From Faecalibacterium sp. CAG:1138 (GTDB taxonomy: Bacteria; Bacillota; Clostridia; Christensenellales; CAG-917): 64,000 nt of DNA. The notes below the pieces were generated by a model, which was given only the letters and a program-made list of their open reading frames with translations, did no database searches and was not told where the DNA came from. This document shows positions 55,758 through 64,000 of the stretch, one piece after another. The stretch covers positions 31,244 through 95,243 of the forward strand of contig HF988637.1 in assembly GCA_000434675.1 (NCBI GenBank), given 5' to 3'. Both the position numbers and the translations under genes were made by a program. Every line of letters starts with the position of its first letter. Position 1 is the stretch's first letter.

Positions 55758-55849
55758 TTTTACGGTATAAATATATAGCGAACATCGTATAATAATTTTT
55801 TTCGACAAAAAACAAAAACATACACAATTTTTAGGAGGATTTATATTCT

Positions 55850-58495
55850 ATGGCAAAGAAGTTTGTTTACAAATTTTCCGAAGGCAACAAGGATATGCGC
55901 AACCTGCTCGGCGGCAAAGGCGCTAACCTTGCCGAAATGACTCATATCGGTTTGCCTGTTCCGTTCGGCTTCACCATCACCACCGAAGCTTGCACTCAGT
56001 ACTATGAGGACGGCAAACAAATCAACGACGAAATCAAAGCGGAAATCCTTGAAAACGTCAAAATGCTGGAAGAAAAAGCCGGCATGAAATTCGGAGATAA
56101 AGAAAACCCACTTCTCGTATCCGTCCGTTCCGGTGCAAGGGCTTCTATGCCGGGCATGATGGACACCATTCTGAACCTCGGTCTTAACGACGACGTGGTT
56201 GAAGTTCTGGCCAAAAAATCCGGCAATCCGAGATGGGCTTGGGACTGCTACAGGCGCTTCATTCAAATGTTCAGCGACGTCGTTATGGAAGTCGGCAAGA
56301 AATATTTTGAAGCTCTCATCGACGAACTCAAAGAAAAGAAGGGCGTTACCTTCGACGTAGAACTCACCGCAGACGACCTCAAGGAACTGGCCGGCAAGTT
56401 CAAAGCGGAATATCAGGCAAAAATCGGCAAACCGTTCCCGTCCGATCCGAAAGAACAACTCTTCGAAGCCATCAAAGCCGTTTTCCGCAGCTGGGATAAC
56501 CCGCGCGCAAACATCTATCGTATGGACCACGACATCCCTTACAGCTGGGGCACCGCAGTCAACGTACAGATGATGGCTTTCGGCAACATGGGCGACGATT
56601 GCGGCACCGGCGTTGCGTTCACTCGTAACCCTGCCACCGGCGAACCGGGCCTCATGGGCGAATTTTTGATGAACGCGCAGGGCGAAGACGTCGTTGCAGG
56701 CGTTCGCACCCCGATGCCTATTTCCGAAATGGCAAAAGTTCTGCCGGAAGTTTACGCTCAATTCCAGGACGTTTGCAAAATCCTTGAAAACCACTACAGG
56801 GATATGCAGGATATGGAATTCACCATTCAGCAGAAAAAACTTTATATGCTTCAAACCCGTAACGGCAAACGTACCGCATCTGCCGCTATAAGAATCGCTT
56901 GCGACCTTATCGACGAAGGTATGATCACCGAAAAAGAAGCTCTTCTCCAAATCGACGCGAAAACCCTGGATATGCTTCTGCACGATCAATTCGACGCAAA
57001 AGCTCTTAAGTCCGCCGACAAAGAAAACGTCGTCGGCAAAGGTATCGCAGCTTCTCCGGGCGCCGCTGCAGGCACCATCGTCTTCACTCCGGCAGACGCC
57101 GTAAAACTCGGAAAAGAAGGCAAGAAGGTTATTCTCGTTCGTTTGGAAACCTCTCCTGAAGATATCGAAGGCATGAAATACGCTCAAGGTATCCTCACCG
57201 TTCGCGGCGGTCAGACCTCTCACGCGGCAGTCGTCGCAAGAGGCATGGGCACTTGCTGCGTTTCCGGTTGCGGCGACATCAAAATGCACGAAGAAGAGAA
57301 ATGGTTCGAACTCGGCGGAAAAGTTTTCCACGAAGGCGACAACCTTTCCCTCGACGGCAGCACCGGCAACATCTACGACATCGCTATCAAAACCGTTCCG
57401 GCAGACCCAAGCAGCGGCTACTTCGGACGCATCATGCAGCTTGCAGACAAATATAAAGCTCTCGGCGTAAGAACCAACGCCGACACTCCGGAAGACGCTA
57501 AACGCGCGGCCGACCTCGGCGCACAAGGCATCGGTCTCTGCCGCACCGAACACATGTTCTTCGGACCGGGCAGAATAGACAAATTCCGCGAGATGATTTG
57601 CTCCGAAACCGTCGAAGAAAGAGTTAAGGCTCTGGACGCAATCGAACCTATGCAACAAGCTGACTTCGAAGGCCTTATGGAAGCTTTGAAAGGTCATCCT
57701 GTTACCATTCGTTTCCTCGATCCGCCTCTTCACGAATTCGTTCCGACCGCAGAAAAGGACATCGCAGAACTTGCAAAAGCAAAGGGAAAAACCGTTCAGG
57801 AAATCAAACTTCTTTGCGACAGTCTGCACGAATTCAACCCTATGATGGGCCACCGCGGTTGCCGTCTGGCAGTTACCTATCCGGAAATTGCCGTTATGCA
57901 GACCAAGGCTATCATCAAGGCCGCCATCGCAGTGAAACAACGTCATCCTGACTGGAACATCGTTCCTGAAATCATGATCCCGCTTATCGGCGAAATCAAA
58001 GAACTCGTGTTCTGCAAAAAGACCGTTGTCGAAACCGCAGACGCAGTTATCAAAGAAGCAGGCGTCGATCTCAAATACGAAGTCGGCACCATGATCGAAA
58101 TTCCAAGGGCAGCGCTCACCGCGGACGAAATCGCAAAAGAAGCCGAATTCTTCTGCTTCGGCACCAACGACCTCACCCAGCTTACTTTCGGCTTCAGCCG
58201 TGACGACGCAAGCAAGTTCCTCCCGAGCTACTACGCCGCCAAGATCTACGAATCCGATCCGTTTGCAAGGCTCGACACCGTCGGCGTAGGCAAACTTATG
58301 AAGATGGGCGTCGAACTCGGCCATGCAACCCGTAAGAACCTGCATTGCGGTATATGCGGCGAACACGGCGGCGATCCTTCCAGCATCGAATTCTGCCACG
58401 ATATCGGCATCGATTACGTTTCTTGCTCTCCGTTCCGCGTTCCAATCGCAAGGCTCGCAGCGGCGCAGGCTAATATCCGTAATCCGAGGGGCTAA
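55850..58495 (+). CDS. ppdK: Pyruvate, phosphate dikinase
   Basis: Contains GGKGANLAEM, the phosphohistidine loop GGQTSHAAVVARGMG, and C-terminal GTNDLTQ...CGEHGGDP. 881 aa. Confidence 0.95.
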   Translation: MAKKFVYKFSEGNKDMRNLLGGKGANLAEMTHIGLPVPFGFTITTEACTQYYEDGKQINDEIKAEILENVKMLEEKAGMKFGDKENPLLVSVRSGARASMPGMMDTILNLGLNDDVVEVLAKKSGNPRWAWDCYRRFIQMFSDVVMEVGKKYFEALIDELKEKKGVTFDVELTADDLKELAGKFKAEYQAKIGKPFPSDPKEQLFEAIKAVFRSWDNPRANIYRMDHDIPYSWGTAVNVQMMAFGNMGDDCGTGVAFTRNPATGEPGLMGEFLMNAQGEDVVAGVRTPMPISEMAKVLPEVYAQFQDVCKILENHYRDMQDMEFTIQQKKLYMLQTRNGKRTASAAIRIACDLIDEGMITEKEALLQIDAKTLDMLLHDQFDAKALKSADKENVVGKGIAASPGAAAGTIVFTPADAVKLGKEGKKVILVRLETSPEDIEGMKYAQGILTVRGGQTSHAAVVARGMGTCCVSGCGDIKMHEEEKWFELGGKVFHEGDNLSLDGSTGNIYDIAIKTVPADPSSGYFGRIMQLADKYKALGVRTNADTPEDAKRAADLGAQGIGLCRTEHMFFGPGRIDKFREMICSETVEERVKALDAIEPMQQADFEGLMEALKGHPVTIRFLDPPLHEFVPTAEKDIAELAKAKGKTVQEIKLLCDSLHEFNPMMGHRGCRLAVTYPEIAVMQTKAIIKAAIAVKQRHPDWNIVPEIMIPLIGEIKELVFCKKTVVETADAVIKEAGVDLKYEVGTMIEIPRAALTADEIAKEAEFFCFGTNDLTQLTFGFSRDDASKFLPSYYAAKIYESDPFARLDTVGVGKLMKMGVELGHATRKNLHCGICGEHGGDPSSIEFCHDIGIDYVSCSPFRVPIARLAAAQANIRNPRG

Positions 58496-58550
58496 GAATT
58501 AGCGCCAAAAAGCGGTAAAAATTCAATTTTTAATTAAAAAATAAGGTTTT

Positions 58551-58586
58551 AGTAGTCATTCTTCTCGGAGAGTGACTACTTTTTTT
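58551..58586 (+). terminator. Rho-independent terminator after ppdK; last host-like sequence before the AT-rich island
   Basis: Long stem AGTAGTCA...TGACTACT (58551-58580) followed by T6. Confidence 0.8.
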
Positions 58587-58706
58587 CTCTTAGAAATCTC
58601 TTGCCAAGTCAAAAATCTGTCAAAAAAACGGGGTGGTTCCTCAAATTTTACATTTTTCTGTATCTACCGCTATGGGTAAAAAAGGGCGATAAAAAGGAGG
58701 TTTTTT

Positions 58707-59252
58707 ATGAAAAATTACAAATTAATCATTGAATATTACAAAAAAGGCAATAAACAAGAGCAAATCGCTACCCTTTGCAGTTGTTCTCGAATGACTGTTT
58801 TTACTGTGCTAAAGCGTTTTCGAACTCTAGAACTTAATTATGATGACGTAAAGTCAATGAGTGAAGAAGAAATTTCTTCTTTATTATTCCCCGAAAGGGC
58901 GAAAGCCGGGGAAGGGTATTTAATTCCCGATTTTAAGTGGGAAGAGTTTCAAATGTGTAAACATCAATCGTCTATAAGGCTTTGTTGGCGTAGGTATTGC
59001 AAACGTGCCGCAAAACAAAACTTGATGGCATACAGTTGGAAATGCTTTATAACTTTATATAATGCTTATCGCAGACCCAAAATAGTAGTCGAAGACCCAA
59101 ACGACAAGATTCGCAACAAACTAAAAGATTTTAACTTTTTATTATCTTGTTGCCAGCGTGGAAGTATAAACTATCAAGTAATCCAACGTAAAAAGGAAGA
59201 GTGGCTCAAATCCTTAAAACTCGAAGAAGATAAAATTTTGGACGACGAGTAA
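58707..59252 (+). mobile_element. IS21-family transposase (IstA) remnant: N-terminal HTH part only, no DDE domain
   Basis: The sequence NYKLIIEYYKKG..QEQIATLCSCSRMTVFTVLKRF...S.EEISSLLFPE....(Y)LIPDF..........LCW..YC follows the N-terminal ~125 aa pattern of Firmicute IS21 IstA. It then diverges and stops at 181 aa. Confidence 0.6.
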
Positions 59253-59264
59253 TTGAATAATCAA

Positions 59265-59304
59265 CTAAAAGGTTAGGACAAAGACGTTCTAACCTTTTAG
59301 TTTA
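59265..59304 (+). terminator. Rho-independent terminator after the IS remnant
   Basis: Perfect 12-bp arms CTAAAAGGTTAG and CTAACCTTTTAG with a 12-nt loop, followed by TTTA. Confidence 0.7.
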
Positions 59305-59469
59305 TGTATTGTTTTAACTAAACTCACACGAAACACTTGTTCAACGTAGTGTTTTGTGTAAAAACAGTTAAAAACTATATCTTTTAAACCTAAAATGCTT
59401 GAAAAACGTCGTTTTTTCTTCGGAAATCAAGCAAATTAGGTATAGTATTACTAAATATTAACCAAATCT

Positions 59470-59509
59470 ACACAAACCACTTGACTTTTTTAGTGTTTTA
59501 TATTAAAAT
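59470..59509 (+). promoter_or_regulatory. abiE promoter overlapped by an inverted repeat (putative AbiEi operator)
   Basis: TTGACT (59481-59486), 17 nt spacer, TAAAAT (59504-59509). The IR arms are ACACAAACCACT (59470-59481) and AGTGTTTTATAT (59492-59503), matching 9/12. A similar IR lies at 59326-59359. Confidence 0.45.
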
Positions 59510-59537
59510 GGTTAAAATTAGTTTTGAGGATATGAAA

Positions 59538-60275
59538 ATGGCAAAATTTATCCCTTATACGTTTACAAAAAAGGACGTAATAGGCAATTTTATAAATGAT
59601 AAACAATACGAAAATTGGATAGCGGGGCAAGTTCGTTCCAAAAAAATTGTTAAGGTTCGCAACGGTTTATACGTTCACGTTGACGTGTCGGGATATCCAC
59701 TTACAACAAAGTTTGAACTTGCTACAAAAATTGCTGAAGATGCTTTCGTGTGCTATCATTCTGCCTTTGAATATTTTGGCGTGGCTAATCAAGTTTTTAA
59801 TACCGTAACGGTGGGTAGTAAAAAGCGTTTCAACGATTTTACTTTTGACGATATCGACTATGTTCGTAAGCCTCTAAAACACGACGTTCAAATTATGAAT
59901 ATAGTAACCGCCGCGGTTCGTGTGACTTCTCTTGAACGTACGGTTGTTGACTGCCTTGACGATATTGACGCAGGTGGTGGAATTGATGAAATCTTAAATG
60001 CGCTTGACCAAATTCGTGTTTTAGACGAAACAAAACTACTTGAAACGTTAAAAGCCTACGATTCGGTATTCCTATATCAAAAAGCGGGCTACGTGTTAGA
60101 ACATTTTCAAGACAAATTTATGTTGACCGATTCGTTTTTTGAAGAATGTAAAAGCAAACTAACCAATCAGATAAAGTATTTTTTACAAGACGAGTATAAA
60201 GATATAGAGTTTAATTCTAAGTGGAAACTTATGGCGCCTAAAAATCTTAAATCTCGACTAAACGGAGGATATTAA
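59538..60275 (+). CDS. abiEi: Type IV toxin-antitoxin / abortive infection antitoxin AbiEi-family protein
   Basis: About 245 aa. The N-terminal wHTH-like part has ...KKIVKVRNGLYV.... The C-domain reads AFVCYHSAFEYFG.AN.....V.V... . Start set at ATG 59538, 7 nt after GAGGA. TAATG overlap with the NTase toxin gene. Confidence 0.75.
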   Translation: MAKFIPYTFTKKDVIGNFINDKQYENWIAGQVRSKKIVKVRNGLYVHVDVSGYPLTTKFELATKIAEDAFVCYHSAFEYFGVANQVFNTVTVGSKKRFNDFTFDDIDYVRKPLKHDVQIMNIVTAAVRVTSLERTVVDCLDDIDAGGGIDEILNALDQIRVLDETKLLETLKAYDSVFLYQKAGYVLEHFQDKFMLTDSFFEECKSKLTNQIKYFLQDEYKDIEFNSKWKLMAPKNLKSRLNGGY

Positions 60276-61213
60276 TGGAATTTTCAAGACAATACTTGAC
60301 GAGACTTGCCCAAGAATCCAACTTTATAAAAGATACTTTGGAAAAAGTTTTACGTCTTTCTGAAATATTAAAATTTTTAAATAGCGACGTTGTCTTTAAG
60401 GATAAACTTGCTCTTAAAGGTGGTACGGCTATAAATCTAACTGCAGTAGAGCTTCCGCGCCTTTCGGTTGATATTGATTTGGATTTTACCGTAAACGTTA
60501 GCAGGGACGAGCTGCCTGAAATAAAAGAAAAGTTCAAAAAGCGCCTAACCGACTATATGTGGCAAGAAGGTTATTCTCTTGCAGATTCTCGCGACCATTT
60601 CGCTTTAACGTCTTTCTTGTTTAATTATATTAATAATGCAGGCAATCGTGATAATATAAAGGTTGAAATCAACTTCTTGGATAGATGCCACGTTTTACCG
60701 CTTGAAAAGAAAAAGATTTTAACGAAAGGTATCGTAGAAGATTTTGAAGTTTTAGCCTTAAACACTACTGAACTATATGCAAGTAAAATCAACGCTCTTC
60801 TATCACGTGCTACGCCAAGAGATTTATATGACGTTAACGCTATGATAGAAAATAACGTTATAACGGACACCGAGCTTTTAAGAAAATGTCTTGTATTTTA
60901 TAACGCTATTGGCGGTGATTATGATATTCAAGATTTAGACTATAAAAACGTTGAAAGATTAGATTATAGGAAGTATAAAACTCAATTAAAACCCGTTGTA
61001 TCAAAAGACGATAAGTTTGATATTGAAAAGGCAAAAGAAAAAGTTCTGGCGTACGTAAAAGATTTACTTGTTTTAACGGACGGCGAAAAAGAGTTTCTAA
61101 GTAAATTAAAAGATAAAACTTATGCGCCCGAATTATTATTCGACAACGAAGAAATCGTAGCGAATATAAAACATCACCCAGCATCCTTATGGCGCATAAG
61201 AGAAAATATATAA
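60275..61213 (+). CDS. abiEii: Nucleotidyltransferase toxin AbiEii/AbiGii family (DUF1814)
   Basis: Contains LALKGGTAINL....LPRLSVDIDLDF, the pol-beta NTase G[GS]-x9-13-DxD motif. It also has the later ...ELYASKINALLSRATPRDLYD pattern typical of AbiEii. 312 aa. Confidence 0.85.
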   Translation: MEFSRQYLTRLAQESNFIKDTLEKVLRLSEILKFLNSDVVFKDKLALKGGTAINLTAVELPRLSVDIDLDFTVNVSRDELPEIKEKFKKRLTDYMWQEGYSLADSRDHFALTSFLFNYINNAGNRDNIKVEINFLDRCHVLPLEKKKILTKGIVEDFEVLALNTTELYASKINALLSRATPRDLYDVNAMIENNVITDTELLRKCLVFYNAIGGDYDIQDLDYKNVERLDYRKYKTQLKPVVSKDDKFDIEKAKEKVLAYVKDLLVLTDGEKEFLSKLKDKTYAPELLFDNEEIVANIKHHPASLWRIRENI

Positions 61214-61277
61214 GAATATTGACTATTTGCCCAACAGAAAAAGAAGATAAAATTTAGTCATTTCAAAGGAGAAAATC

Positions 61278-62807
61278 ATGGCTGAAATAGAAATTGGTAA
61301 ATTTACATTAGAATCCTTGACGACGGGTATGTATAACAATCCCGAAATTGTTTATAGAGAATATATTCAAAACGCTGTAGATTCATTTGATAATGCAGTA
61401 TCAAAGAAGTTAATGAAACTTGACGACTGCAGAATTGAGATAATTGTTGACGCAGATAGGCAAGAGATTAGTATTAAAGATAATGGTACGGGTATCGGAA
61501 AAGAACTTGCTGTAAAAACCTTGTTGGATATAGGCAATTCTACTAAAACACATACAAGCAACAGAGGTTTTAGAGGAATTGGTCGTTTGGGTGGATTATC
61601 TTATTGTAAAAAATTAAGTTTTTGCACCTCTGCTCAAAATGAACCGGAAAAAACATTAGTTACTTTTGATTGTGCGAAGTTAAAAGAATTGCTAATCCCT
61701 GGACAAGCTACTGAATATAATTTGCAAAAAGTTATTTCTGCTGTTACTGAAGTAAAGGTATTGTCTGAGCAAGCGTCGGCTCATTACTTCATAGTAAAAA
61801 TGGAAGGGGTCGACGATATTTCCACATTGCTTGATATTGAATTTGTTAAGGATTATATCGCTCAAGTGGCGCCTGTTCCATTTAGAGACCGTTTTTATTG
61901 GGGGAGAGAACTTAAAAACGAATTTGCAAAAAGCAATTTTAATGTTGCCGAATATGCTGTGTTTGTTGGTGATTCTTTTGAGACATTGTCCCAAGTATAT
62001 AAACCTTATAAAATTACAATAGATGTTTCTGCTCGAGCTGGGGTGGCGAAAGATGAAATTCAAGGGATATCATATTTTGATATCAAAGATTCTTCCGATA
62101 AAGTATTAGCTATTGGTTGGTATGGTGAGCTTGATTTTTATGGGACAATTGCCGATGAAAAAGTCTCTGGTATTAGAATTAGACAAGGAAATATTCTAAT
62201 TGGTGACAATAAAACGTTATCCCCATATTTTATAGAAGCGAGATTTAACAACTGGTGCGTTGGTGAATTGTATATAATTTCTGATGATTTAATACCGAAT
62301 GCAAGAAGGGACGGGTTTGAAAGCAATAAGGCATTTTCTGAGTTTTGCGATTGTTTTAAGATGACAGTTGGTGTTGAGTTAGGATTAAAGATAAGGACAG
62401 CGTCTAAAACTCGAAATAATCCAATGAAGAAAGCCTTAACCAAAACTGAGAAAACTATTGTCGCTGTTGAAAAGGTTTTAGAAAGTGGTTTTAATTCTTC
62501 TTTTGAGAAAGAACAAATAGCCAAAAGTTTAGAAGGTGCAAGAAAAGACCTTTATGTTATACCTAAGGACGCACCAACAGAGATTGCTACTCAAAAGGCT
62601 GAATTAATGGGGAAATTGACTGAATTAACAACTGAAGTTGACGAGTCAAATAACTATAAAACAAAGAAAGATATTCCTTCGGACTTTTCAAAAGCGGAAA
62701 AGAAAATAATACAGGCAATGTTAGAAGTACTAACGAAAAATTTTGAAAGACCGATAGTGGATAGCTTATATAAAGAATTTTTACAAGAACTAAAGAAAAA
62801 GGGCTAA
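61278..62807 (+). CDS. GHKL-superfamily (MORC/HATPase_c_3-like) ATPase
   Basis: The Bergerat-fold motifs appear in order: N-box REYIQNAVDSFDNA, G1 IKDNGTGIG, G2 NRGFRGIGRLGGLSYC. 509 aa. SD AAAGGAG. Confidence 0.8.
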   Translation: MAEIEIGKFTLESLTTGMYNNPEIVYREYIQNAVDSFDNAVSKKLMKLDDCRIEIIVDADRQEISIKDNGTGIGKELAVKTLLDIGNSTKTHTSNRGFRGIGRLGGLSYCKKLSFCTSAQNEPEKTLVTFDCAKLKELLIPGQATEYNLQKVISAVTEVKVLSEQASAHYFIVKMEGVDDISTLLDIEFVKDYIAQVAPVPFRDRFYWGRELKNEFAKSNFNVAEYAVFVGDSFETLSQVYKPYKITIDVSARAGVAKDEIQGISYFDIKDSSDKVLAIGWYGELDFYGTIADEKVSGIRIRQGNILIGDNKTLSPYFIEARFNNWCVGELYIISDDLIPNARRDGFESNKAFSEFCDCFKMTVGVELGLKIRTASKTRNNPMKKALTKTEKTIVAVEKVLESGFNSSFEKEQIAKSLEGARKDLYVIPKDAPTEIATQKAELMGKLTELTTEVDESNNYKTKKDIPSDFSKAEKKIIQAMLEVLTKNFERPIVDSLYKEFLQELKKKG

Positions 62808-62811
62808 TAAT

Positions 62812-64000
62812 ATGGAAATTTATCCTGAAAAATATGACCAGCTTGAATTAACATCTAATGAAAGGTCGTTTTTACGTACAGTAAGCAGGGCGTTTAACGA
62901 GGACGAGCTTGGTTATTACGTATTACATATTAATCCAAGAAAAATTGGGCTCGAAGGTGGTAAACCGGAATTATTCAATCTTCTAATTTGCAAAGAAGGT
63001 TTACTTTTGTTGCGTTTTTTTGATGTTGATAATGTTAATGCAGTAAAAATGACTATAGAGCTTAATGCACAAAGAGGTGTTTTTGACAAGATTGAAAATG
63101 ATATTTATGAAAAATTAAAAGGTAGTAGATATCTTCTAGATTTTTCAGGAGAATTATTGTTTAATTTTAATATCTGTTTTGTTTTCCCTGAAGTAGAAAG
63201 TTCACAAGTTTTATCACAATTGACACCAAATGGTAGATCATTTGTAACAAAGCATGTTTTATTTAAGGATACAATTTTAGCTGTTAGAAAAGAAGGAGAA
63301 AGCGTTCTTAAAAGGTATATTTCCAGAAGAAATTTTATTGAAGAAAAAATAATTAACAATATTTTTCAAAGGCTTTGTCCAGAAATTACTATTGCTAGAA
63401 AATATATTTTAAGTGACGACGTGTCAGTAACTACTCACGATAAGGGTGTGGATGGTTCTGATAGGTCAGTGTTGTCGTATAGGCTTGATTCCTCTCAAAT
63501 TAATATAATCAACAAGATTAAAAAGGGGGACCAGCTAATTTTGGCGTGTGCTGGTAGTGGAAAAAGCGTTTTGCTGATATCGAAGTGCTTTAAGTTGGCG
63601 AGCTTAAATCCTGCTGAAGATTTCTTAATTACTTGTTATAATAGAAATCTAAACAACTATTATCAATGGGCGATAGCTCAGGCAGGCTTTTTAAATAGAA
63701 ATGTAAAGTGTCAAACTTTCTTTGGCTTGTTGAGACATTTGTTAGAAAGTAACCATATTCCAATACCAACTGTATATAACGGAGATACAAACGAGTATTT
63801 TGATGCGCTTTTTAAAGTTGCGAATGACGCCTTAGCAAAAGGAAGAATTAAAGAAAGATTTACGGGAATTTTTATTGACGAAATACAAATATTCAAACCT
63901 GAGTGGTATAGATTTTGTTTCAATTTATTAAAGAACAAAAACCCTGAAAATCATTTCTTCGTTATTGCTGGGGATAAGTCTCAAGATATAAAAAATCATA
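62812..64000 (+). CDS. NERD-like N-terminal domain + UvrD/Rep-type SF1 helicase (3' end beyond the window)
   Basis: My own translation from ATG 62812 is open to nt 64000 (396 codons). Motifs: ...PELFNLLICKEGLLLLRFFD (NERD-like), Q-motif/Walker A LDSSQ...ILACAGSGKSVLL, and Walker B GIFIDEIQIF. It starts 4 nt after the ATPase stop. Confidence 0.8.
   Translation, partial: MEIYPEKYDQLELTSNERSFLRTVSRAFNEDELGYYVLHINPRKIGLEGGKPELFNLLICKEGLLLLRFFDVDNVNAVKMTIELNAQRGVFDKIENDIYEKLKGSRYLLDFSGELLFNFNICFVFPEVESSQVLSQLTPNGRSFVTKHVLFKDTILAVRKEGESVLKRYISRRNFIEEKIINNIFQRLCPEITIARKYILSDDVSVTTHDKGVDGSDRSVLSYRLDSSQINIINKIKKGDQLILACAGSGKSVLLISKCFKLASLNPAEDFLITCYNRNLNNYYQWAIAQAGFLNRNVKCQTFFGLLRHLLESNHIPIPTVYNGDTNEYFDALFKVANDALAKGRIKERFTGIFIDEIQIFKPEWYRFCFNLLKNKNPENHFFVIAGDKSQDIKNH

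Follow-up and report, generated by a model that had tools for sequence, protein, structure and literature searches.

A GHKL ATPase and a UvrD-type helicase from Faecalibacterium sp. CAG:1138 head a conserved DrmAB-centred gene cassette that is probably a DISARM-related defence system

Introduction

Classes 1 and 2 of the DISARM defence system, reportedly set out by Ofir and colleagues in 2018, consist of DrmA, DrmB, DrmC, DrmMI/MII and either DrmD or DrmE. Here, we analysed the right end of a 64,000-nt stretch of DNA from Faecalibacterium sp. CAG:1138 (GenBank assembly GCA_000434675.1, contig HF988637.1, positions 31,244 to 95,243 of the forward strand), which is referred to as the window throughout. 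An original prediction, made from the sequence of the window, had proposed that a GHKL ATPase gene and the helicase gene behind it belonged to an uncharacterised anti-phage system. We found that these two genes, named here GHKL1 and Hel1, were very probably the opening pair in a single operon of eight genes centred on DrmA-like and DrmB-like proteins. The whole cassette was probably a DISARM-related system directed against phages or mobile genetic elements and working in two parts, one for marking and one for restriction.

DrmA and DrmB of DISARM form an ATP-dependent complex (DrmAB) that is autoinhibited by a trigger loop, and DNA with a 5' overhang releases this loop (Bravo et al. 2022, PMC9142583). 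It has been reported that the DISARM-like clade includes many uncharacterized classes (Bell et al. 2025, bioRxiv 10.1101/2025.09.15.676423). In the same work, ARMADA was described as a YprA helicase fused to a Vsr nuclease and accompanied by a BrxHII-like helicase and a PglX-like methylase, while BRIGADE required 7-deazaguanine genes and TALON required TPR-CSD and TBP genes (10.1101/2025.09.15.676423). GHKL ATPases of the MORC/paraMORC type were found earlier in restriction-like operons, where they were proposed to act as an ATP-driven engine of DNA clamping or looping (Iyer, Abhiman and Aravind 2008, PMC2292703).

Results

Gene order of the cassette

The GHKL1 gene occupied positions 61278..62807 on the plus strand and encoded a 509-aa Hsp90-like GHKL ATPase, as indicated by its open reading frame (ORF), by Pfam and PDB profile matches and by an AlphaFold2 model. 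The full set of Bergerat motifs attributed to it by the original prediction was indeed present, namely the N-box REYIQNAVD, DNGTGIG and NRGFRGIGRLGG, and the protein matched Pfam HATPase_c_3 at 5e-11. Its TAA stop codon (62805-62807) was followed by TAAT and then by the ATG of Hel1 at position 62812. This agreed with the predicted spacing of 4 nt. Translation of Hel1 (62812..64000, plus strand) gave the first 396 of the 655 codons of a superfamily 1 (SF1) helicase of the UvrD type, with SF1 motifs and, as had been noticed before, no stop codon up to the end of the window.

The exact GHKL1 protein was present on 22 public contigs. A 130-kb contig (L001, ERZ1314534 NODE_9) differed from the window by 1 mismatch in 12,723 overlapping bases and could therefore be used as its continuation. 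The complete helicase and its neighbours, expected by the original prediction beyond position 64000, were recovered from this contig: Hel1 was 655 aa long, with an end equivalent to window position 64779, and it was followed by an unannotated protein that we called X (421 aa), a DrmA-like protein (1155 aa), a DrmB-like protein (623 aa) and a second helicase, Hel2. Neighbouring genes in this series were 2-10 nt apart or overlapped by a single base. In a 97% identical metagenome-assembled genome (MAG) of Christensenellaceae (L023), Hel2 was followed by a gene for a 674-aa radical S-adenosylmethionine (radical SAM) enzyme and by a gene for a 493-aa second GHKL ATPase, GHKL2. The same two genes came after Hel2 in contigs L044-L049 from close relatives, where the next gene was on the opposite strand, and in L044 the stretch of low GC content stopped at the stop codon of GHKL2. 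The complete order was GHKL1, Hel1, X, DrmA-like, DrmB-like, Hel2, radical SAM and GHKL2, with a total length of ~15.3 kb.

Conservation of the cassette

A DrmA alignment was scanned against one genome per GTDB species, which yielded 27 loci, and homologues of each cassette gene were mapped onto them with phmmer and hidden Markov model searches. All eight genes were present in 12 species-level loci, including those from Desulfosporosinus, Saccharofermentans, Oscillospiraceae and Lachnospiraceae. Most of the remaining loci, among them assemblies of Desulfovibrio, Bacteroidota and Thermoguttaceae, kept the order as far as the contig reached, and the same layout was found in more than 25 other genomes. 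The DrmA proteins of Bacillota and of the Desulfovibrio, Bacteroidota and Thermoguttaceae assemblies with this gene order were 42-69% identical. Neighbouring genes overlapped or were separated by gaps of ~1-40 nt, mostly below 15 nt, and no further conserved gene was found to flank the cassette in the mapped loci. The cassette was carried by several sequenced isolates, and each of its components had thousands of metagenome homologues, many of which came from gut Bacillota.

The original prediction had suggested a distinct system of two genes or possibly more, and it was the larger form that held. In every context examined, GHKL1-type homologues (43-100% identity) opened a longer cassette built around DrmA-like and DrmB-like genes. 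More distant GHKL homologues represented other GHKL branches and belonged to different modules. Hel1 was always followed by DrmA, with X between them or not, and GHKL1-Hel1 without DrmAB was never seen in the contexts examined (~40 loci). A stand-alone two-gene defence resembling Gabija, with the GHKL protein in place of GajA, would be in line with the 4-nt spacing, with weak partial matches to GajB (1e-7 to 1e-12) and with the two-gene unit formed by a similar plasmid GHKL and a PIN-like protein. However, since the pair never occurred alone and DrmA was always present after Hel1, we regarded this possibility as extremely unlikely. The lack of nuclease residues in Hel1 (see below) also counted against it because the GHKL1-Hel1 pair would then have no obvious effector.

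It was also conceivable that the locus combined two or three separate systems (GHKL1-Hel1-X; DrmAB-Hel2; radical SAM + GHKL2) that are conserved side by side and travel together. There is precedent for conserved arrays of this kind (e.g., Zorya-Druantia-ARMADA), and the radical SAM + GHKL pair was found in quite different neighbourhoods. Moreover, a six-gene form lacked GHKL1 and X, and an archaeal relative had only DrmAB and neither Hel1 nor Hel2. On the other hand, the strict order, the overlapping or nearly abutting junctions and the co-conservation at 42-69% identity across phyla were typical of one operon. Neither GHKL1-Hel1-X nor DrmAB-Hel2 was observed alone among ~40 loci, and, measured against DISARM, DrmAB would be incomplete if it had neither a nuclease nor a partner for modification. 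Thus, independent systems were an unlikely explanation, and we continued to treat the eight genes as a single operon.

Several loci had unusual features. One of two Saccharofermentans assemblies (L012 14590-20073, compared with L011) had DrmA and DrmB each broken into two ORFs, and Hel2 was split in L022 (15349-16988); these were either cases of pseudogenisation or assembly errors. A viral genome from IMG/VR (L052) agreed with the contig L016 of Desulfosporosinus sp. Tol-M in length (38,409 nt) and in the model scores of every cassette gene. The two were taken as the same contig, and therefore prophages may sometimes carry the cassette or lie next to it.

Comparison with described systems

The strongest similarity of the cassette was to DISARM. 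The DrmA-like protein matched the PADLOC DrmA model PDLC02576 at 4e-166 over residues 12-1152, and the single PDB sequence match of its profile was DrmA from the Serratia DISARM complex (7S9V_A, 4e-60). Its Walker A and DExH motifs were invariant. The DrmB-like protein matched PADLOC DrmB at 1e-57 and Pfam MZB (MZB/DUF1998) at 1e-7, and its only PDB match was DrmB of the same complex (7S9V_B, 2e-5). As in DISARM, the YprA-type helicase was split into a superfamily 2 (SF2) DrmA and a separate DUF1998/zinc protein DrmB, and it was part of a multi-helicase operon located in defence islands. However, neither a DrmC/PLD nuclease nor a DNA methyltransferase was matched by Pfam or PADLOC in any of the eight cassette proteins, and the slot after Hel2 was occupied by the radical SAM gene. 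DrmD and DrmE also had no PADLOC match in the cassette, where Pfam SNF2 gave no match either. In the absence of a methyltransferase, a PLD nuclease and DrmD/E, the cassette was not a canonical DISARM. Instead, it had two NERD/UvrD-type SF1 helicases, a radical SAM enzyme, two Hsp90-like GHKL proteins and a beta-solenoid protein.

ARMADA, BRIGADE and TALON resemble the cassette in being YprA-family defence operons with added helicases. In addition, the last component of ARMADA type II is a UvrD helicase of the GajB-like kind that bears an N-terminal nuclease-type domain, and TALON has a NERD nuclease. All three systems were nevertheless ruled out because their required genes were absent. In the comparison with ARMADA, the cassette helicase was split as in DISARM, and the cassette proteins of L001 had no match to BrxHII, PglX or Vsr. 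Neither radical SAM nor GHKL proteins were mentioned in the text or the text-format supplement of Bell et al. 2025, and NERD was likewise not mentioned in that supplement.

The GHKL proteins of PMC2292703 were similar to those of the cassette in that an active GHKL was encoded beside helicases and nucleases. The emphasis of that study was on SF2 helicases, methylases and nucleases of the restriction fold, with no mention of radical SAM or DUF1998 proteins, whereas the cassette contained two GHKL paralogues that were most similar to the N and middle domains of Hsp90.

A different kind of similarity was observed with Dnd and Dpd systems. Relatives of the radical SAM + GHKL pair on plasmids and islands were found beside DGQHR (DndB/DpdB-like) or ParB_N genes, and Dpd also has a DUF1998 helicase. 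This analogy suggested a common logic, in which a modification module would be combined with a multi-helicase restriction module. However, the cassette had no DndACDE, SspABCD, DpdA/TGT or queuosine-pathway genes, and its chemistry would be based on radical SAM.

Finally, Hel1 and Hel2 were UvrD-like SF1 helicases with weak GajB matches, as in Gabija, and Hel2 was a nuclease-helicase fusion like Nhi. In contrast to Gabija, the cassette had no OLD-family GajA and its genes were located inside a DrmAB operon. Gabija or another named system was therefore ruled out for GHKL1-Hel1, for which PADLOC gave only weak GajB fragments and no GajA. The original statement that no canonical named system fitted, with no GajA and no methylase, was thus valid beyond the window as well. 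Our full-text literature searches found no published description of this architecture; they did not cover subscription-only journals, and an earlier description is possible.

GHKL ATPases

The GHKL motifs of GHKL1 were invariant in 18 homologues. GHKL1 and GHKL2 were paralogues with ~36% identity, both had all of the ATP-binding motifs, and the residues E28, N32, D35, D68-N-G-x-G72 and R96-G-F-R-G-I-G-R-L were invariant in both. The original prediction had pointed to MORC-like GHKL ATPases in defence contexts. The profile matches of GHKL1 in the PDB were limited to the N-domains of Hsp90/HtpG (1e-6), and in its AlphaFold2 model (mean predicted local distance difference test score, pLDDT, 76.7), ~300-320 residues aligned to the N and middle domains of Hsp90/TRAP1 with E ~1e-10 and were followed by a helical C-terminal region. 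Judged by profile matches and predicted fold, GHKL1 appears to be closest to Hsp90/HtpG (N + middle domains) rather than to MORC.

GHKL1 had more than 4,253 homologues, and those with E<=1e-30 formed 646 clusters at 50% identity. With PADLOC, it matched only a type II restriction enzyme model (0.004), and no GajA match was found. According to a matrix of BLAST scores, GHKL2 was nearer to the plasmid GHKL proteins encoded next to radical SAM genes, and the placement of GHKL1 was ambiguous. In a collection of phage GenBank entries, a GHKL with 37% identity was present on one unannotated contig of 8.9 kb.

Helicases and protein X

The part of Hel1 encoded in the window contained the motifs ACAGSGKS and FIDEIQ and matched Pfam UvrD-helicase at 1e-6. 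The full-length protein matched Pfam UvrD-helicase and UvrD_C as well as UvrD in the PDB (1.6e-4), and its SF1 motifs I-VI (AGSGKS, FIDExQ, GDxSQ, NYRN, GLDF and CTRAK) were invariant among 14 homologues. It had been predicted that the N-terminus of Hel1 was NERD-like, and this claim had to be dropped, since its sole support was the description of a PADLOC model (C3a187, 'NERD+UvrD'), which matched the Hel1 fragment at 2e-19 and the full-length protein at 1.4e-29. Residues 1-220 had no invariant acidic or lysine residue and no D...ExK motif in the 14 homologues. Hel1 had no Pfam NERD match, a database search with its N-domain gave no support for NERD, and hhalign comparisons of the whole protein and of the N-domain with the NERD domain of Hel2 gave a probability of <1% (E 0.7).

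An intact NERD domain was found further downstream, in Hel2 (Pfam NERD 2.4e-11), where it was combined with SF1 helicase domains. The residues D55...E69-x-K71 were invariant in 14 homologues and the helicase motifs were intact, which made Hel2 the best nuclease candidate in the cassette. Its nearest solved relative was HelD (DNA helicase IV), and the HelD entries that it matched presumably came from RNA polymerase complexes. The GajB matches of Hel1 and Hel2 were partial (E 1e-7 to 1e-12) and far weaker than those to the 'NERD+UvrD' and 'RTasNERD-Hel' models.

Protein X was fast-evolving (18-43% identity) and had a beta-solenoid similar to bactofilin/FapA. The Bactofilin model was matched weakly by 15 of the 16 members, and one match, at 2.9e-7, was over the gathering score. 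Long forms of X, including that of the window lineage (L001 13505-14770), had a PcrA/UvrD Tudor insert. In Fusibacter (L039 8416-9972), X kept the beta-solenoid core and had KH domains at its C-terminal side. The sequences of these swapped C-terminal additions hint at variable contacts with nucleic acids or RNA polymerase.

The radical SAM enzyme and its pairing with GHKL proteins

The radical SAM protein (L023 17002-19026, 674 aa) matched Pfam Radical_SAM at 7e-7, just over the gathering score. Its CX3CX2C motif consisted of C159, C163 and C166, which were invariant in sets of 10 and of 37 homologues. A sequence search against the PDB produced only a non-significant GapR-like match in the C-terminal helices and was set aside as uninformative, and therefore a fold search was needed. 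The best PDB folds for the predicted structure (pLDDT 81.5) were TsrM (5e-4) and AprD4 (1e-3). TsrM is a cobalamin-type methyltransferase and AprD4 is an enzyme with a B12 domain. AprD4 itself is reported to lack cobalamin. NCBIfam gave weak matches to B12-type radical SAM and RimO models. Thus, the modelled architecture of the protein was similar to that of B12-type (class B) enzymes, and cobalamin binding was putative. Two further observations were made on this protein: residues ~550-620 had a weak, non-significant likeness (E 0.02) to the DNA-binding GapR/UPF0335, and the BFVD library of viral folds returned one borderline match, a COG1032 protein.

The pair of radical SAM and GHKL genes was also found in other settings. 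On alpha-proteobacterial plasmids, a radical SAM gene whose product was 39% identical (E 9e-103) had a DGQHR (DndB/DpdB-like) gene on one side and a GHKL gene on the other, and a second GHKL was paired with a PIN-like protein. The arrays on Novosphingobium pNL1 (L050 12016-22418) and on an Agrobacterium plasmid (L051 3190-13578) also encoded a further large DGQHR protein and were a candidate for a different system assembled from the same parts. The only RefSeq labels for the genes of these two arrays were 'ATP-binding protein' and 'radical SAM protein'. On two contigs classified as viral in IMG/VR (L053 6007-13479 and L054 8296-14244), radical SAM and GHKL genes were adjacent to genes for ParB_N and SNF2-helicase proteins, and a contig from a metagenome run (L136 7112-12154) encoded a GHKL fusion protein with the same ParB_N/SNF2 neighbours.

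Homologues of the enzyme were also present in phages. The cassette radical SAM matched phrog_9298 at 7e-37, and at least 492 IMG/VR contigs encoded relatives, typically of ~305 aa and with 25-31% identity to the cassette enzyme. In L078 (9971-10894), a phrog_9298 radical SAM gene was located beside a pyrophosphatase gene (phrog_9236). A role of the phage proteins in counter-defence by mimicry was possible.

The repeated location of the radical SAM + GHKL pair beside DndB/DpdB/ParB-like proteins, together with the phage homologues, suggested a DNA-modifying module. We hold only tentatively that the radical SAM enzyme marks DNA. In its full form, the proposal is doubtful: the enzyme and GHKL2 would place a self mark by radical chemistry, possibly a cobalamin-type C-methylation or adduct, and phage phrog_9298 proteins would copy this mark.

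Alternatively, the operon could be as described above but with a radical SAM enzyme that does not mark self DNA. In that case, its product could be a modified nucleotide or a small molecule with antiviral action, or its target could be RNA or protein, and DNA structure alone would decide what is self, as has been proposed for DrmAB. DISARM can restrict phages in which methylation sites are missing, and it is the structure of DNA by which DrmAB discriminates (PMC9142583); radical SAM effectors are known in defence, e.g., Ophion, and a phage homologue beside a pyrophosphatase would suit nucleotide chemistry. However, DGQHR and ParB_N proteins, which recurred beside the pair, are hallmarks of DNA-modification modules, the fold was like that of class B methylase-type enzymes rather than viperin, and the phage homologues would suit a modification used by both sides. 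We therefore considered a non-marking role somewhat unlikely.

Genomic surroundings and the question of immunity

The cassette started in a low-GC island, the left part of which (58500..64000, from the composition profile of the window) contained an ORF with a helix-turn-helix (HTH) match, the AbiEi and AbiEii genes and the first cassette genes. The GC content fell from ~0.52 to ~0.33 near position 58500, and the AT-rich island that had been described behind the AbiE pair was thus real. The AbiE genes (59481..61213, plus strand) formed a separate toxin-antitoxin/abortive-infection pair identified by PADLOC and Pfam: AbiEi (59481-60275; PADLOC 8e-77) and AbiEii (60275-61213; PADLOC 6e-109, Pfam AbiEii 1e-27) overlapped by one base. 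No such pair was present beside the cassette in the other genomes examined. A Shine-Dalgarno sequence, AAGGAG (61266..61271, plus strand), was read 6 nt ahead of the GHKL1 ATG.

The surroundings of related cassettes were also consistent with the predicted defence island. In a metagenome contig (L133 2243-9783), a cassette headed by a 43% identical GHKL1 was part of an island with GmrSD, McrBC and RelA_SpoT, and a DndB-family gene was located immediately upstream of GHKL1. In a Desulfotomaculum MAG (L014 5569-7390), two ThsB-type TIR genes and a phage integrase gene were upstream of the cassette.

These data were relevant to the possibility that the cassette has no role in immunity and is a machine for DNA repair, replication restart or transcription conflicts carried by a mobile island. 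MrfA, a repair helicase, belongs to the YprA family; among proteins of solved structure, HelD was the closest to Hel2; and X had the PcrA/UvrD Tudor domain in some lineages. On the other hand, DrmA and DrmB matched the defence branch specifically (PADLOC DrmA 4e-166), and the distribution of the cassette was patchy and looked like the result of horizontal transfer, with low-GC islands beside AbiE, Thoeris-like TIR, McrBC and GmrSD. A repair machine was thus very unlikely, and we considered a defence function of the cassette quite likely.

Two other features of the window were observed to the left of the AbiE genes. An insertion sequence (IS) remnant had been claimed there. The corresponding 181-aa ORF did match HTH_23, whereas its IS630/IS21/IS66-TnpA-like transposase matches were weak and all under the cut-offs. 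The ORF was followed by a hairpin with a 17-bp stem (59263-59302), and this region (58707-59302) may be a transposase fragment at the left edge of the island. An 852-aa ORF on the minus strand (55841-58399) was antisense to the pyruvate phosphate dikinase gene (55850-58495, plus strand) and was taken as a shadow ORF of a high-GC coding region rather than a gene.

Discussion

A possible division of labour in the cassette can be outlined as follows. The radical SAM enzyme and the ATP-driven GHKL2 would put a covalent mark on host DNA, in place of the missing methyltransferase. It has previously been reported that a phage radical SAM enzyme modifies DNA after replication (PMC8989533). DrmAB would load on invading DNA, with single-stranded DNA of a 5' overhang releasing the trigger loop as in DISARM, and would then work with Hel2, the likely nuclease-translocase effector acting on unmarked DNA; we put the chances that Hel2 is the effector at about even. 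GHKL1 and Hel1, together with X as a scaffold, would serve as an ATP-dependent module for recruitment or regulation and would mirror the PIN-like + GHKL pair of the plasmids.

A number of points weigh against this interpretation. The radical SAM and GHKL2 genes of the window's own strain were not recovered and were seen only in relatives with 90-97% identity. A sequence scan of the 64-nt gap between AbiEii and GHKL1 found no consensus promoter on the plus strand and no terminator above the shuffled background, and so the boundaries of the transcription unit were only putative. A six-gene form in Flavonifractor and Selenomonadaceae was the one that lacked GHKL1 and X, and no GHKL2 was seen in loci L032 and L024, which means that not all parts were obligatory. 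The NCBIfam scores of the core were below the DISARM cut-offs (375 bits vs 950 for DISARM_DrmAS and 94 vs 240 for DrmB_fam), and the DrmA/DrmB core was therefore a divergent branch. The TM-scores of the radical SAM model against TsrM and AprD4 were low (0.33-0.45), and the substrate of this enzyme could be a nucleotide, RNA or protein. Homology and gene context are the basis on which we infer a role in defence, a mark on DNA and separate tasks for the parts.

DISARM-type systems are widespread, and the cassette bears on how such systems discriminate self from non-self and destroy DNA. It kept the DrmAB core and exchanged all of the accessory parts: a radical SAM enzyme was present for the methylase, NERD-helicases for the PLD nuclease, and two Hsp90-like ATPases were added. 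If the proposed function is true, the module would be the first 'M' component to rely on radical SAM chemistry in a cellular system resembling restriction-modification. Marking of DNA by the radical SAM enzyme would represent a new bacterial epigenetic chemistry, and the phage homologues would then suggest mimicry. Even if DNA is not marked, the cassette provides a natural experiment on the functions that DrmAB needs from its partners.

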